A stretch of DNA of 64,000 nt from Octopus vulgaris (GCA_951406725.2 OX597815.1:101742001-101806000); one strand, 5' to 3'; numbered from the stretch's first letter, positions 15,451-54,372 are shown. Notes: generated from the letters alone by a model not told the origin. Made by a program: numbers and translations.

Positions 15451-15595
15451 CATTCGAAGCCCTCAGTCATCAGTCAAGAACCAGATCATCTTAGCAATTT
15501 CGGCTGATTAATCTTGAGATTGCTCCGATATGGGCAGCCCGCCAAGGGAAATCTAAGCCAAGTGCATTAGATCCCCTGGAAGAAAGCTTCGAATG
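15451..15595 (-). ncRNA. Reverse-permuted hammerhead-like RNA, variant A, copy 1 (intact core)
   Basis: Minus strand: GGCTG..CCATATC..AGCAAT-C-TCAAGA-TTAAT-CAGCC-GAA-ATTGCT..GATCTGG.TCTTGA-CTGATGA, enclosed by CATTCGAAGCTTTC/GAGGGCTTCGAATG. Confidence 0.7.
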
Positions 15596-16229
15596 TATAC
15601 AACACGAGGACGGAAAACTAAAGAAGTACACGAACAAAAATACAGAATACGTGACAACAATAAGAATACAAAAACGTAAAAACAATAACGGTAAAATAAA
15701 GTATAAAAAATAAACAACGAAACAAAACCAGGACGTAGGACAAGGGTCTTTCGACAGGACGAATTGAGTATGGGGCTGGCTTATGAAGTTGTGCCTAATG
15801 GCCACAGGGAGACGAACAAGTACGTGTTGCTTCAGCGGCTGCTGGAACGAAAAGAGCGCTCAACAGCGGCTAGCGGTCACGTGAGAACAAAAGACAAGAG
15901 AAAGGGACAGATGAAAAGAGAGAGAAGGTGGACGAGGGAGGAGAAGAAAGAGACAGATCGAGGGGGCTGGAGGTGAGAGAGATAGAGAAACGTAGAAGGG
16001 GGGAAAGACGGATGGAGAGGGAAAGAAAGGAGGGGGAATAAGGGAGGAGAGAGAGAGAGAGAAAGAAAGATTAAGAGTCGTATCAATGCTTGAGAAAAAA
16101 TATACTTATCGTATAAGGACAAATGTGGATACGTAGCCGCCGATTATATAGGTAAACAGTAAAAATAATTACAGACATGGACAAGAACATGAAACGCCAC
16201 AGAGACGACACAAGAACCACAGGACGGGA

Positions 16230-16374
16230 CATTCGAAGCCCTCAGTCATCAGTCAAGAACCAGATCATCTTAGCAATTTCGGCTGATTAATCTTGAGATT
16301 GCTCCGATATGGGCAGCCCGCCAAGGGAAATCTAAGCCAAGTGCATTAGATCCCCTGGAAGAAAGCTTCGAATG
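16230..16374 (-). ncRNA. Reverse-permuted hammerhead-like RNA, variant A, copy 2 (intact core)
   Basis: Identical to 15451-15595, offset 779 bp. Confidence 0.7.
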
Positions 16375-17695
16375 TATACAACACGAGGACGGAAAACGAA
16401 AGAAGTACACGAACAAAAATACAGAATACGTGACAACAATAAGAATACAAAAACGTAAAAACAATAACGGTAAAATAAAGTATAAAAAATAAACAACGAA
16501 ACAAAACCAGGCCGTAGGACAAGGGTCTTTCGACAGGACGAATTGAGTATGGGGCTGGCTTATGAAGTTGTGCCTAATGGCCACAGGGAGACGAACAAGT
16601 ACGTGTTGCTTCAGCGGCTGCTGGAACGAAAAGAGCGCTCAACAGCGGCTAGCGGTCACGTGAGATATATATATATATATATATATATATATATATATAT
16701 ATATATGCACATACATACATACATACATACATACATACATACATACATACATACATACATACATACATACATACAGCATGCTTCTTTCAGTTTCCGTCTA
16801 CCATATCCACTCCCAAAGCTTTGGTCGGCCCGAAGCTACAGTAGAAGACACTTACTCAAGTGCCATGCAGGGGACTGAACCTCGAACTGTATTATAAATA
16901 ACTACAAGACTAGTAAAATTCAACTTCAAAAGAAGTACTAATATTAGAAAAGCTGTACAGAAAATTCAAGCATAAAATGAACTGTAAAGTTTTAGGTTTC
17001 GATTGAACTTCAAAAAGCTAAGCACTCGACTACCGATTTAATCAGTCAAAGACAAAAGAAAACTCCCTAAAAGTAGCAAGTGTTCAACAGGAGGCGAGAC
17101 TGTATATCAATGATGATAAAATGGATGGAAAAATACTTCAAACAGAAAAAGTATAAGCGAGGAAATATTAAAGCAAAAACAAAAGAAGACAGTGATATCG
17201 AGTTAGAAAACAAATGTTGAATAAGAATGACCTTGCTTGGAGACTTTTAAAATGATTGAAATATCCTCTTTTAGAAAAATACGTAAATTCGCGCTAGCTT
17301 AGTATCTACTCATCCGTTTTCAGTAACTAATAACAATTTCGTGACAGGGTAAATTCAATTAAATCATTGCAGTAGTCGAATGGTACATCATTTTATTGAC
17401 AACCAAAGTATGAAATGCCAAGAAACAGGATTAAAACTAAGACGTAAAGTGACTGCAAGGGCATTTTAGCTGTCACCCTAACGATTTCGAAAAGAAATTG
17501 CTCCGATGATGCACAAACTAAAAATTTGATGGGAAAGAATTACTAGATTAATATGGCCCTGGTCCTTTTATTTTGTCAACTCTGACATCGATAAGTTTTG
17601 AACTCAAAACGTGAAGAACTGGAATAAATATCAATAGGGAACTTTTTTTTTCCGTCGCTCTAACGATTCTTCCACTGCATTATTCTAGTGGTATA

Positions 17696-50820: not shown

Positions 50821-52930
50821 ACAGCTAACAAACCCAAGGCTGTGAGGAGTTTTCAGGACATTTACAAGGAAAGAGCTATAGTCTTACAGCTGTTTTGGGG
50901 ATATTATATATATATATATATATATATAATCCTTTCTACCTAGGCACAGAGCCTGACATTTCTGGGCGGGGTGTAATCGATTTACATCGATCCTTGTACT
51001 CAGGTGGTACTTATTGACCCCCGAAAAAACGAAAGACAAAGTTGACCTCACCAGATTTTGAACGTGGAGACAGACGAAATACCGCCAAGCATTTCGCCCG
51101 GCGTGCTAACGATTCTGCCAGCTCGCTGTCTATGCATATACATAGCTGTTGTTTAGTCTCGGGTCAATCCTGAACCAAAAGTCATACAGTCGTTATAATA
51201 AAATGCTTTATTTAAATAAAATATCTATATACAGTAATGTGCTCTTCCGTTTTAGTAATGGTAGGGTGTAATTTGACTACGACTGGACAACTATTTCTTG
51301 CAGCACAAAAGACCTTATTAAAGTTCACTTGTTTAGTTACTCCTTCTAGCTTGTACTTTCCTTTAGTCATCAAACCCATCAATGTAGGGGGTTCGTAATA
51401 GTTATAAGCTTTGTCTCACCATCATGGACAAAGCTACCAATAGGACACACCCACTGATTCTCCACCCCCACATACACATACATGCATGCACACACTCACA
51501 CACACAGACGCACGCACACATTAATGTATTTATACAATGTACTGCAACAGTTGCACAAGCTCCGATATTAATATTGCACTGTATGAAACACACATACATA
51601 TACACATATCCACATTGACACTCTTACACCGACGCGCACATGCACCCCCATGGACGGAAGCGAGCATAAAATCACATACGGAGACATTGTAAGGCTTTAT
51701 AATCAACACCATCGCCTCAAACACTACTACCAGCAGCAACTAGCGCAACCACCATCGCCACCATTATCATAAACACCAACATCACTCCCATCATAACCAT
51801 CAAACACCGATCTCCATTCTCTTACCACCCCCACCAGCAGCAGCAGCAGCAGCACATCACCACCGCCACCACCACCAGCCTCACCAGCACCACCACCAAC
51901 ACTAGCACCACCACCACCACCACCACCACCACCACTACTACTACTACTACTACTACTACTACTACTACTACTACTAATGCTGCTGCTACTACTGCTGCTA
52001 CTGCTACTGCTGCTGCTGCTATCACGACTTATTGTTCATAGTTTTATGGTAAATTGTCAGGTTCTATAATAGCAATAATAGAATTAATATCGAGCCATGC
52101 TATTCACTGGTTTGCATTGTTTCTGGTGAGACGCCGGAATATTAACACTATTACAACATACACGTGTGTGTGTGTGTGTGTGTGTGTGTGTGCGCGCGTC
52201 TATGCGTGATTGTGCGAGTGAGTGTGTGTGTGTAAGTATCTATATGTGGAATATATATGATATGCATTTTTGTGTGTGTACATGTGTGTATGTGAATGTA
52301 TATATCTATATATGCACACACACACACACACGTGTGTATGTATGCTTACATGTAAATATAAATATAAATAGATAAAAATATATATGTATATATATATATA
52401 TATATATATATATATAGTGACAGAGAGAGAGAGAGAGGGAGAGAGAGAGAAAGAGATAGATAACATACATACATTTAGGTTTTGTATTTAATACACACAC
52501 ATATATACATACACACGCACACACACAGATGCACATATATATAGACACGAACGCACACACACATATATATATATATATATATATATATATATATATATAT
52601 ATATATATATATATATATATATATATATATATATATATATATATATATATATATATATATATATATATATATATATATATATATATATATATATATATAT
52701 ATACAAACATACACATATATATATATACATATATATAGATACACACACACACACTCACACACACACACACACGCACTCACACACACACACACACTACACA
52801 CACACACACACACACACACACACATATATATTTATATATTTACATACATATATTTATATAACGGTCACAGTTTTTCCTCTATGTTATCACATTGCGCCAG
52901 GCTGTTTATATTAATTTTACGTATATACAT

Positions 52931-53757
52931 TACTCTTTTACTCGTTTCAGCCATGCGGCCGTGGTCATGTTGGAGCACCACCATGGTCTTTCTGACTTCT
53001 TTAGTCAGGGTGTTTCACATCACCACTCCTGTATGTGCCTTTATCTCAACTGTTGGTACGTTTGGTGCATAAGGGAGTTTGATTCCTCTGCCCTCGTTGG
53101 CACCTCATGTCACGCTGTTGGTTCATCCGGTATTGTGCAGAGGACGATGGCTATTTCCTTTTTGAAGATATCTCTTTGTACCTTATGCAAATTTCTTAAT
53201 TGTTGTGACAGGGCATTGAAGAGATGTGGGCCTTTGAACTATTGCAGTACCTGGTCCTGAATTTAGATAGAGCGGATGGTACCTTTGATACAATACAATG
53301 GTGGTCAGTTCTGGCATTTGTATAACACTCAATGCCAAAGTTAGGCACTAGCCCTTCTACAATTTTCCATATGTTAGATTATTGCATATCTGTCACGCCT
53401 TCGCTCCAGGGAGTAAAGATGTAGTTTTCTCAGCCTATCCCTGTAGCTCATCCGCTGCACTGTTTCAGTCTTTTTAGTGTAGTGGCGCTGGACTGCTTCA
53501 AGCTTCGCTGTTAGTTTGCACTATCTGGGGATCATAACTGAGAGCAGTAATCCAGGCGGCTGAGAACAAAGGTTCTCCACAGGGTCAACATAGTTTCTTG
53601 GTTTCTTGTCTTGAAGGCCCTCAGTACCTATCCTGCCAGTTGTCTGCACTTTGCTGCCATCTCGCTAATGTGCATATAAAATGATGCGTCATTGCACATA
53701 CTGATCCCAAGCCTTTCACTGCCTGTGACTCTGGGATTGTAGTACCTTCGGGTCCTG
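52931..53757 (-). mobile_element. CR1/L2-group LINE 3' fragment, related to 62191-63650
   Basis: Minus strand LRAFKTRNQETMLTLWRTFVLSRLDYCSQL*SP...LEAVQRHYTKK...SYRDRLRKLHLYSLERRR; ends GGTGCTCCAACATGACCACGG..TGGCTGAAACGAGTAAAAGAGTA. Confidence 0.88.
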
Positions 53758-54236
53758 TATATATGTATATATATATATATATATATATATATATATATAT
53801 ATATATATATATATATATATATATTTATATATATATGTATGTGCGTATGTAGAGATAAAACTTACTTGGAAAATTACTTAATAATTACGATGCGCACTCT
53901 TCTATCTCTACTATCTCTTCTCTGTCTATCTCTCTCCCTCTCTTGTTCTTCATCTTTTCTGGTTTTCTCTCCCACCCTTCCCTATTCTTCTCCTCTCCTC
54001 TTCACCGTTCCCTCTCTCTCACTCTTCCTCCTTGACTCTCTCGTCGCTGACATGTGACAAAAGGGAATCTATCTTTCTGTCCATGTCCTTCCTAAAGATA
54101 AGACGTGCTTATACCTGTCTCCTCTCATAAACTCGTGCTCTTAGCGTTCATAATAATTTTTCTATCGTCTTGGCTTAACAGCTCTCGCCGTTTGTTTTTA
54201 CTGTCTTGTTCTCACTATCCTGTTCTTGTTACCACT

Positions 54237-54372
54237 TTCACCCTCCGCAAAAAATCCTAAATTTTATTTAATTTACTTTGTGGGAAGGACTGTTTCAACG
54301 AAGTTGCGTATTGTCCTTACCTTCGGAACGCGGAGTAGATGCAACAGGGACAACAGATGAAGGAGAATATTC
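54237..54372 (+). ncRNA. Reverse-permuted hammerhead-like RNA, variant C (two core substitutions)
   Basis: GAAGG(54284)-A-CTGTTTCA..TTGCGT-A-TTGTCC-TTA-CCTTC-GGA-ACGCGG..TGCAACAG-GGACAA-CAGATGA(54354-54360). Confidence 0.65.

Follow-up and report, generated by a model that had tools for sequence, protein, structure and literature searches.

The window analysed here is a 64,000-nucleotide stretch of Octopus vulgaris DNA, in which the initial annotation had reported six copies of a hammerhead-like motif with its catalytic strands in the order UH, GAAA, CUGANGA. All six were recovered from the window sequence at the same coordinates and in the same strand order, and the motif is real; a BLAST search with nine family representatives as queries found no further copy in the window. 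All are members of four TA-anchored, non-coding repeat families present in high copy number, here called A to D, which form two lineages: A and D are 75-79% identical, and B and C 70-72%.

On the minus strand, a 5'-truncated non-coding retroelement insertion of family A (15366..16665) comprises 1.67 head-to-tail units of ~780 bp each, with its 3' end inside a (TA)n run. The first of its two split-core hammerheads, A1 (15451..15595, minus), has an intact core consisting of GAAA at 15498-15501 and CUGAUGA at 15467-15473, with a predicted cut at 15518|15517 (AUC). Its helices are P0 (15582-15595/15451-15464), the P5 hairpin (15542-15579), stem II (15535-15539/15502-15506), P4 (15527-15533/15481-15487), stem III (15519-15524/15493-15498) and stem I (15512-15517/15474-15479); the folding z is -3.4 and both P0 and P5 are present in the centroid. 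The second, A2 (16230..16374, minus), is identical and lies 779 bp, or one unit, upstream.

Family B is represented on the plus strand by a non-coding element at approximately 26522..27180 with (TA)n at its 3' end. Its hammerhead (26959..27082, folding z -4.2) also has an intact core, with GAAA at 27041-27044, CUGAUGA at 27070-27076 and a predicted cut after 27024 (AUA), and is built from P0 (26959-26964/27077-27082), stem II (27000-27004/27036-27040), P4 (27006-27011/27057-27062) and stem I (27025-27030/27064-27069). A broken partial copy of the same family (26406..26480, plus, start approximate) is without II-5', carries G12C and stops within CUGAUGA. A 5'-truncated family D copy on the minus strand (27264..27493, limits approximate) contains a decayed ribozyme at 27385-27457 (G12A, A9G). 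The family C element (53870..54500, plus, limits approximate), again non-coding with (TA)n at its 3' end, contains a decayed hammerhead (54237..54365, plus; U4A, A13G) with stem II at 54284-54288/54320-54324, P4 at 54290-54297/54340-54347, stem I at 54311-54316/54348-54353 and a site after 54310 (GUA). The sites given here for A, B and C agree with those predicted earlier. The six copies had been described as keeping their pairing, and the stems are indeed present, but the core has decayed in C, D and the partial B copy and is intact only in A1, A2 and B. Four covarying variants had also been claimed; as these amount to only two lineages, covariation is weak from the window alone, and the strong covariation comes from sequences outside it.

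From sequence and covariation, the elements follow the order P0a, P5 hairpin, II-5', P4a, III-UH-Ia, short linker, II-3'-GAAA-III, P4b, Ib-CUGAnGA, P0b. The stems, the S-G-C order and the opening of the chain between A9 and 10.1, where an enclosing helix and a hairpin had been proposed, were all supported. Block C is therefore split: the 5' strand of stem II sits upstream, and P0 and P5 stand in place of the A9-G10.1 bond. Hammerheads of types I, II and III are defined by the cyclic order C-G-S, a three-way junction and the lack of a core pseudoknot, whereas the order here is S-G-C. The explanation that we favour, and consider likely as a whole with the circular-template model discussed below, is a hammerhead of type-SGC connectivity in a circular permutation whose chain break falls inside block C. 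That the motif cleaves as a hammerhead, 3' of H17, is very probable.

A split-core descriptor was run on 456 kb made up of the window and fetched loci, the latter picked for having the motif, and gave 70 matches, compared with none in the reversed sequence and 0, 1 and 0 in three shuffles. Because those loci were preselected, the unbiased test is that on 80 metagenome loci chosen with RT protein similarity as the sole criterion. The full descriptor, which required CUGAnGA, GAAA and UH so that their presence in matches is not independent evidence, found 28 matches in this set, none on the antisense strand and none in five shuffles. When the search was made blind to stem II, 31 S-G-C matches were obtained, all on the ORF-sense strand, and 19 of the 26 non-redundant ones had a 5-bp Watson-Crick stem II with its upstream strand 18-27 nt before U16.1 (swap control mean 1.5, maximum 5 in 500). 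A chance origin of the motif is excluded. An ordinary type-SGC hammerhead, with block C intact and an upstream complement due to chance, is hardly credible. The B and C copies offer a weak, G-U-rich 4-bp pairing after a 1-nt insertion, and 3/31 instances reach 4 bp with G-U pairs counted, but at least four Watson-Crick pairs of stem II were found upstream in 21/26 matches and downstream of CUGAnGA in 0/26, and the nucleotides following A9 are paired with the strand that precedes P5.

Two features that were not in the descriptor were also enriched. P4 reaches at least 6 bp in 24/31 non-redundant instances (swap mean 5.9, maximum 11), and the P0/P5 junction is without spacer in 16/31 (swap mean 1.2, maximum 6), the family A junction being 2 nt off zero-spacer at each of three places. 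Each of the four Watson-Crick pair types is represented at the first P0 and P5 positions. Among the 31 instances, G10.1-C11.1 occurs in 28 and C15.2-G16.2 in 25, and the cleavage triplets are GUC (9), GUU (8), GUA (8), AUC (2), AUA (2) and other (2). Where the locus included the ORF end, a strict match was present in 21/34 and a relaxed match in 4 more; in four of the 34 RLE loci (L206, L242, L251 and L268) the motif was not seen by eye. Rfam hammerhead models gave no match to A or B at E<=10, bearing out the expectation that standard descriptors miss the motif; three family E loci likewise gave none, and no hammerhead was among the 150 listed of 468 matches in a whole-window Rfam scan. For the intact family F, a nested fold was no better than shuffles (z -0.55).

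Non-LTR element RTs bind their RNA at its 3' end, which is where the motif is located, and a catalytically silent, hammerhead-derived 3'-UTR structure might have been kept as an RT-binding or priming signal. Core conservation differs among the families: CUGAnGA, GAAA and NUH are intact in 31/38 fetched family B copies, while GAAA is kept in 10/31 copies of family C, with A13U (9) and A13G (6) recurring, and in 13/33 of family D, whose query sequence is itself mutant. Given this frequent loss of GAAA, some families may have spread with a dead core. The mutations of A13 in family C and of G12 in family D would suit a silent signal, as would the family E copies that span the cut site. The two-helix branch at A9/10.1 could also disable the core, insertions of A10-to-C or -G being harmful in CChMVd according to the available text of PMC3705267. 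Nevertheless, we regard a silent signal as very unlikely: the non-pairing catalytic positions, together with the preferences typical of hammerheads (G10.1-C11.1, C15.2-G16.2 and RUH), are kept across RT lineages that are only 33-60% identical, and across two retroelement orders, and the 21/34 match rate at ORF ends is independent of the core strings that the descriptor required.

The reversed cyclic order had been presented as possibly a new topology. This order, the short linker between stems I and II and P4 are already features of type SGC, which was defined together with types CSG and GCS by Eckert, Friedrich, Weinberg and Weinberg (2023; PMC10085705). As far as the consulted sections of that paper go, HRIMA-1 and its variants share with the motif the S-G-C order, the double-pseudoknot core, all conserved core nucleotides, a short (~3-nt in SGC) linker between stems I and II, and a helix joining the far ends of these stems that corresponds to P4. 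SGC RNAs with the same linker and this helix, there named 'I', cleave in vitro at 0.007-0.19 per min. The present motif differs in having block C interrupted between A9 and G10.1, where the P0/P5 junction is situated, and in placing II-5' and the P4 strand ahead of S. Eckert et al. explicitly assumed that block C cannot be interrupted, and stated that in known alignments insertions between CUGAnGA and its stems do not exceed 1-2 nt. This limit also argues that the extra helix of the variant 'with additional helices' (Weinberg et al., 2015, from the same senior author, as cited in PMC13725137) lies elsewhere. In the CChMVd plus strand (PMC3705267) and in schistosome PLE motifs (PMC4209133), the A9/G10.1 position is described as accepting one extra nucleotide; here it is occupied by a branch of two helices that carries the chain in and out. 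SGC RNAs were found near hairpin ribozymes in metatranscriptomes, while the split-core motif is genomic and occurs in retroelements in thousands of candidate copies; the supplement text of PMC10085705 mentions neither Octopus, Acropora nor reverse transcriptase, and its main text does not use the word 'animal'. The split of block C, of which we could not find a description in the literature consulted, and the retroelement setting are what remains new.

That setting had been missed by the initial annotation: the motif is a predicted 3'-end ribozyme of retroelements. It is in sense orientation and occurs at three kinds of place: ~100-200 nt beyond the ORF in RLE-type non-LTR elements, within the 3' UTR in several Naiad Penelope-like elements, and close to the fixed 3' end in the non-autonomous families A-D, which insert into (TA)n. 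Family A consists of 778-780-bp non-coding units with one hammerhead each, in arrays of at least six units; families B, C and D are mostly solitary copies or inverted pairs, with inverted B pairs at three sites that were each fetched twice (L027/L032, L034/L040 and L035/L041). Families A-D share no body sequence with families E or F. They resemble Naiad PLEs in their preference for (TA)n, in having a fixed 3' end with 5' truncation, and in the inverted copies upstream. A Naiad ORF has GIY-YIG at its N terminus and the RT at its C terminus; in 60 loci, no ORF for RT or GIY-YIG had an A-D ribozyme at its 3' end, and no autonomous partner was found. Families A-D would be retrozyme-like parasites of another element's RT, most likely one of Penelope type.

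Naiad-like RT remnants are associated with family E. The motif of the octopus Naiad family sits downstream of such remnants, with 186 exact pattern matches in genome G000 and none in the control. In the sequences of the PMC8557442 supplement, inspected by eye, the same fold was recognized as the terminal part of published Naiads that include octopus and coral ones, namely at the 3' end of Naiad_Obim, Ovul, Amil, Aacu and Anas and, with a short stem I, of Bfor; it was not seen in the bivalve Naiad passages inspected. That study (Craig et al., 2021) dealt with the same elements at the same place, and noted Naiad_Ovul as HHR_half_core and as inserting in (TA)n. As far as its available text goes, it gave core strings only ('HHR_core'/'HHR_half_core') without a structure, and reached the conclusion that canonical hammerheads are lacking in Naiads; neither the fold nor its covariation nor its presence in non-Penelope elements was found there.

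Intact RT/restriction-endonuclease elements of 1112-1175 codons (PF00078) bear the motif after the stop codon. RLE non-LTR elements of the HERO clade have one ORF that combines RT, a zinc knuckle and a PD-(D/E)xK endonuclease. Families F and G have an RT by Pfam, and a Cys/His knuckle and a PD...ELTVP motif were read from their sequences; they may belong to the HERO clade, a name given from these motifs rather than from a tree with named elements. In 3/4 of the full-length intact RT elements fetched, a truncated second copy lies directly upstream, and the junction of this partial tandem is letter-identical on three chromosomes. The upstream partial copies reach 370-1980 bp, far beyond their own predicted cut site, and the 3' ends of the intact elements run on for 1-10 nt along sequence continuing into the next unit. 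These partial tandems with identical junctions fit, we infer, cleavage, circularisation and rolling-circle reverse transcription, although descent from one tandem master would also explain the identical junctions and the 3' read-on.

The motif may be the missing ribozyme that would allow these elements to be copied through circular RNA. Folding back of the P4+III rod would let stems I and II pair as two pseudoknots, like those of SGC RNAs, and P0/P5 would meet the core and stem II in a four-way junction replacing the A9-G10.1 phosphodiester bond. A read-through transcript of a tandem or partial-tandem copy would be cut at each ribozyme, and the two ends of the released monomer would stay clamped by P0, II, P4 and III, where a type I hammerhead has stem I alone. 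Self-ligation or a host ligase could then join these ends into a circle. Priming by the element's RT would take place at the nicked target, from an internal position ~100-150 nt beyond the cut, and its copying round the circle would yield 5'-truncated copies, partial tandems and multimers. If the motif is a cleaving hammerhead, this circular route seems moderately probable. This circle model had been proposed for PLEs by Cervera and de la Pena (PMC4209133/PMC7229834). Against self-joining counts the poor self-ligation of known animal retrozymes (1-3%), in which RtcB does the joining.

The same chemistry might operate in trans only, with the apical loop of one P4+III rod docking on another copy's basal arms to give head-to-tail dimers in tandem transcripts. 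P4 together with its linkers has to bridge the length of stem II, core and stem III, and in family F P4 has only 5 bp, with zero spacer after III; tandem copies are common. A similar geometric problem is flagged by Eckert et al. for some SGC RNAs (PMC10085705), and minimal PLE hammerheads are described as needing dimers (PMC4209133). We consider action in trans unlikely. Single-motif SGC constructs cleave during transcription, although no concentration series was found in the available text of PMC10085705. Across 19 instances, moreover, the rod arms are length-constrained, with 20-29 nt from G12 to C3 (SD 2.9) and 13-18 nt from the cut to G12 (SD 1.3), while P5 is more variable at 15-39 nt (SD 6.3), a hint, though only that, of fold-back geometry.

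R2-type RTs are capable of template jumping, and cleavage might also serve without a circle. The ribozyme could release or set the 5' end of the element RNA from the upstream partial copy, like the HDV-like ribozyme of R2, or tune RNA stability or translation, with tandems arising from uncleaved read-through or RT template jumps. R2 elements are indeed described as using a ribozyme in 5' processing, and no cleavage footprint was seen among the 5' ends of 75 family E copies: 70/75 span the predicted cut site and 2/75 start <=2 nt from it, with ~1.5 expected from the neighbouring rate. Such a lack of clustering is equally compatible with a template that had been ligated and with one never cleaved. 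Among assembled contigs from sequencing runs presumed to be RNA, neither circular RNA nor cleavage or ligation was seen. We judge cleavage without a circle just as doubtful as action in trans, since the upstream partial copies pass their own cut site, which a linear RNA starting from the cut cannot template, and the identical junctions at three loci and the 3' ends that read into the next unit also weigh against this reading.

The available parts of the reports on non-LTR retrozymes and PLE pLTR hammerheads (PMC4209133, PMC7229834, bioRxiv 10.64898/2026.07.22.740005) describe non-coding tandem units with one hammerhead each, as in family A, together with partial tandems, 5' truncation and a proposed circular RNA template and PLE machinery, a life style that family A fits. 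Non-LTR retrozymes are also expressed as monomer RNA in linear and circular form. Their hammerheads, including those of Li, Clavereau and Pollet (2026), are all type I (CGS) or minimal type I, in contrast to the split-core S-G-C form described here. The searches in these studies used type I descriptors, which are blind to the split-core RNA; as Rfam misses it too, retrozyme censuses undercount.

The split of block C breaks the stated rule of hammerhead anatomy that this block is uninterruptible, and non-circular permutations, so far a rarity of metatranscriptomes, now number thousands of candidate copies in the genome of one animal. The motif also offers an answer to a published puzzle, that Naiads are seemingly without the hammerhead carried by other PLEs. 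A bolder reading, which we put forward only tentatively, is that this seventh, four-block hammerhead topology acts as a clamp that both cuts and joins itself and was taken up by two unrelated retroelement orders, that even LINE-type elements of the R2 superfamily (RLE) retrotranspose via circular RNA, and that Naiads are a reservoir of all the non-circular permutations (split-C, CSG and SGC). RLE non-LTR retrotransposons are added to the carriers of predicted hammerheads, which lie in their 3' UTRs; R2, now used in genome engineering, belongs to this group, and circular RNA templates in RLE elements become a directly testable question. If the multi-helix clamp favours ligation, the motif would be a natural self-circularising RNA module.

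Re-reading of the window sequence located the six stretches reported in the initial annotation, with their parts in the order described there. On the ribozyme strand, all six run P0a, P5 hairpin, II-5', P4a, III-U-H and Ia, then a short linker and a 3' half made up of II-3', GAAA, III, P4b, Ib, CUGAnGA and P0b. They belong to four non-coding, (TA)n-anchored repeat families, with identities of 75-79% between A and D and of 70-72% between B and C. The core is intact in B and in both copies of A (mutually identical), and decayed in C (U4A, A13G), D (G12A, A9G) and the partial copy of B. 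The expectation that standard hammerhead descriptors would miss this RNA was borne out in Rfam, no hammerhead model of which matched A or B at E<=10; hammerheads were also absent among the matches listed for the whole window. Rfam matches to C/D snoRNAs and miRNAs scored far under the gathering score and were dismissed.

Elsewhere in the window, a remnant at 11006-11050 (plus strand), comprising CUGAUGA, one inserted A, stem II (two of its pairs being G-U) and GAAA, resembles an ordinary minimal type I hammerhead as found at canonical Penelope-like element (PLE) ends. An inverted repeat (47159-47307 and 47420-47568), its arms 98% complementary and each containing CUGAUGA, is possibly an inverted pair of PLE ends. 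Sequence reading also placed a putative fragment of a LINE reverse transcriptase (429 codons) at about 62270-63550 (plus) and a helicase-like ORF fragment at 1-520 (plus), which we take from its motifs to be Helitron/PIF1-like.

The reverse cyclic order, put forward initially as a possibly new topology, is already on record. Eckert et al. (2023; PMC10085705) distinguished three hammerhead blocks (S, G and C), listed six orders of them, and described for type SGC both a linker of about 3 nt between stems I and II and a helix uniting the other ends of these stems; the order is therefore not new, nor are the short linker and the P4 helix. Type SGC RNA is cut where predicted, and all four helices are required (Eckert et al., 2023; PMC10085705). 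The RNA described here differs in that the SGC ends are joined through P4a and the chain is reopened within block C, between A9 and G10.1, where the helices P0 and P5 lie and the 5' strand of stem II falls upstream. Judged by sequence, type SGC is its nearest relative, but one defining SGC feature is lacking; catalytic activity is predicted.

Whether block C is truly split was examined on sequences chosen without regard to the motif, starting from a fifth family, F, which a descriptor run over the fetched loci had exposed. In this family the motif lies directly past the stop codon of a reverse transcriptase (RT) ORF that encodes a Cys/His knuckle together with an endonuclease-like motif, PD...ELTVP. 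The intact 3737-bp RT/restriction-endonuclease (RLE) element is present at L169:5095-8832, L170, L171 and L181 (C10, C8, C1 and C28 of the searched genome, G000); the copies are about 99.5% identical and young, with the putative split-core ribozyme after the stop codon and with partial tandems like those of PLEs. In a sister RLE family, G, the split-core fold recurs with different stems at one of nine loci. From an alignment of 28 relatives, 80 of 328 metagenome loci were fetched by protein similarity alone, and these gave 28 split-core matches, all in ORF sense, with none in antisense and none in five shuffles. Of the 34 loci that extend 150 nt or more past the ORF end, 21 matched the strict descriptor and four a relaxed one; 19 of the strict matches lie 104-259 nt past the ORF end and two at 763 and 1676 nt. 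Among the nine missed loci, five have the motif by eye or elsewhere on the contig and four are without any. Many homologues sit on unit-length contigs of 3.6-4 kb. Three metagenome contigs (L203, L243, L269) either carry terminal repeats or are one unit long with a ribozyme at each end, a layout that tandem or circular templates would give; the contigs may be DNA or RNA.

A descriptor without stem II gave 31 matches in the same 80 loci, all on the sense strand. A perfect 5-bp stem II with its strand 18-27 nt upstream of U16.1 was present in 19 of the 26 non-redundant ones (swap control mean 1.5, maximum 5 in 500), and none of the 26 had a stem II of at least 4 bp downstream of CUGAnGA, which rules out the intact block C of a plain SGC. 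Features that had not been requested were then counted in 31 non-redundant instances, with L139 (minus strand, probably false) and the mis-parsed L056 left in. P4 reached at least 6 bp in 24 (swap mean 5.9, maximum 11), P0 and P5 were both present in 22, and 16 had zero unpaired nucleotides at A9/P0, P0/P5 and P5/G10.1 (swap mean 1.2, maximum 6), these swap controls, run in Python, ignoring phylogeny. The G10.1-C11.1 pair was found in 28 and C15.2-G16.2 in 25. The instances share less than 30% of their 8-mers, and each helix occurs with several pair types. Because MAFFT misplaces II-5' in the alignment (A2), swap controls took the place of a covariance model and of pair counts.

From these features we infer that core/stem II and P0/P5 form a four-way junction replacing one phosphodiester bond. 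The junction of family A contains spacers of 2 nt, and a single extra nucleotide at A9/10.1 occurs naturally in CChMVd (PMC3705267) and in schistosome PLE hammerheads (PMC4209133). As to the choice between a double pseudoknot and a dimer, the narrow range of predicted rod-arm (P4+III) lengths mildly favours the intramolecular double pseudoknot. Neither a split block C nor a hammerhead in HERO/RLE 3' UTRs was found described in full-text searches of openly available literature. Weinberg 2015 is cited for hammerheads with extra helices (PMC13725137). On its sequence features the present RNA is a real, widespread and apparently new member of the hammerhead class. In viral contigs, at least 120 pattern matches occurred; none of the 80 listed was a strict match, a small sample that is no proof of absence.

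In the octopus genome (2.8 Gb, rich in microsatellites), the first look gave 2134 candidate copies of A, 3198 of B, 3430 of C and 1317 of D, and 40 per family were scored. Family A is very young: 38 of its 40 scored copies match the query at 100% identity. Units measure 778-780 bp; the insertion in the window comprises 1.67 of them and one array at least six. In ribozyme sense, the 3' end is fixed at a TATATA, a string also present within the unit, and the 5' ends vary. These variable 5' ends (20 loci), together with arrays reaching six units, ruled out a reading of element A as flanked by 521-bp LTRs. Families B, C and D are older (copies about 91-95% identical to the one in the window), are 5'-truncated and terminate at (TA)n; inverted pairs occur at three family B sites. 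The insertion pattern of A-D is that of PLE target-primed reverse transcription as given by Craig et al. (PMC8557442). Some 300 nt upstream of the ribozyme, A and D share a CACGTGAC motif (window 15875-15886, minus strand) that follows a long pyrimidine tract and may be an element of an internal promoter. Additional sister families, related to the A/D and B/C lineages and showing compensatory changes in their stems, were seen at L344, L110:2798-2977 and L006:2508-2686 and at loose ends of the run contigs.

CUGAnGA is recovered in the family majority sequences, in which stems P4 and III also pair perfectly. Both core strings persist in 31 of 38 copies of B, most of which keep GAAA; GAAA is retained in 10 of 31 copies of C and 13 of 33 of D. 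At A13 of the family C GAAA (window 54325-54328 and 30 other copies, n=31), U was found in nine, G in six, C in one and a deletion in two. Simple decay does not readily explain the family C core pattern, and the variability at A13 suggests subfamilies that may have spread with a dead core.

A search of 60 loci for an autonomous partner of A-D found none. The 30 Naiad-like RT loci among them yielded family E ribozymes, two C insertions and one A-lineage ribozyme, which sits upstream of the RT match at L344 and is probably nested. Naiad ORFs in the searched genome are decayed, and the intact RLE element has no body sequence in common with family A. No split-core motif was found on the sense strand of 30 GIY-YIG loci, most of which represent an active 781-codon PLE family with a C-terminal endonuclease; in the 1.5 kb downstream of this family neither a split core nor an obvious type I hammerhead was found. 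The family is very active, with the intact ORF ending in GIY-YIG at L374, L379 and many other places in G000.

Cleavage would leave GAAA and CUGAnGA on the 3' product, the 5' product giving one strand each of P0, II, P4 and III, so that the predicted structure would hold the ends of a released monomer by four helices; circularisation and rolling-circle reverse transcription would follow. Given activity, this is the course we lean towards. Three of the four full-length F copies have a truncated second copy (370-1980 bp) directly upstream, the junction being letter-identical on three chromosomes, and F 3' ends stop 1-10 nt into the sequence continuing to the next unit (24 loci, several of them segmental duplicates); family A ends and tandems behave likewise. 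The genomic copies thus suggest that the template had no free end. Since a linear RNA from the cut cannot template upstream sequence, the candidate templates are a ligated circle and an uncleaved multimer. A circle has been shown for type I retrozymes, where joining is by RtcB and not by the ribozyme; for PLEs it is a proposal of Cervera and de la Pena (PMC4209133). Against the model of cleavage and circularisation count the 5' truncation ends of family E, which are not enriched at the cut site (2 of 75), and the frequent core mutations in C and D. The unit is covered by contigs from three possible RNA runs and from a further run, one contig crossing the predicted cut site by 18 nt; ends, strand and level are not readable from contigs. 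A short tandem duplication upstream at L113, a single case, ends at the predicted cut site and resembles the trace of a template jump at a nick.

Naiad PLEs were reported by Craig et al. (2021; PMC8557442) to be without canonical hammerheads, and unexplained "core" and "half-core" strings were flagged there in Naiads including Naiad_Ovul. The consensus ends in File S5 of that article were read by eye in the passages around search terms, which cover part of the 54 consensuses. The split-core fold was found at the 3' ends of Naiad_Obim, Naiad_Ovul and three near-identical Acropora Naiads, in Naiad_Bfor with a short stem I, and in four further elements of the supplement; in the same passages no such motif was seen in bivalve Naiads. 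In three Nippostrongylus Naiads (Nbra-1, -2 and -3) and in Naiad_Hpol, block C is intact and the blocks run C-S-G, and the nematode Naiad Parc probably ends in such a type CSG hammerhead too, a type previously known from two sequences (Eckert et al., 2023; PMC10085705). One arthropod element in File S5 looks like type SGC. A pattern taken from the octopus Naiad matched G000 exactly at 186 places (control 0), which identifies G000 as an octopus-like genome. The family so matched, E, lies downstream of decayed Naiad-like RT sequence (complete motif at one of eight loci, E-like matches at 12 of 30), and no Rfam hammerhead model matched in three of its loci. Since the motif occurs in Naiads, in RLE elements and in families A-D, it spans two unrelated orders of retroelements together with their non-coding parasites.
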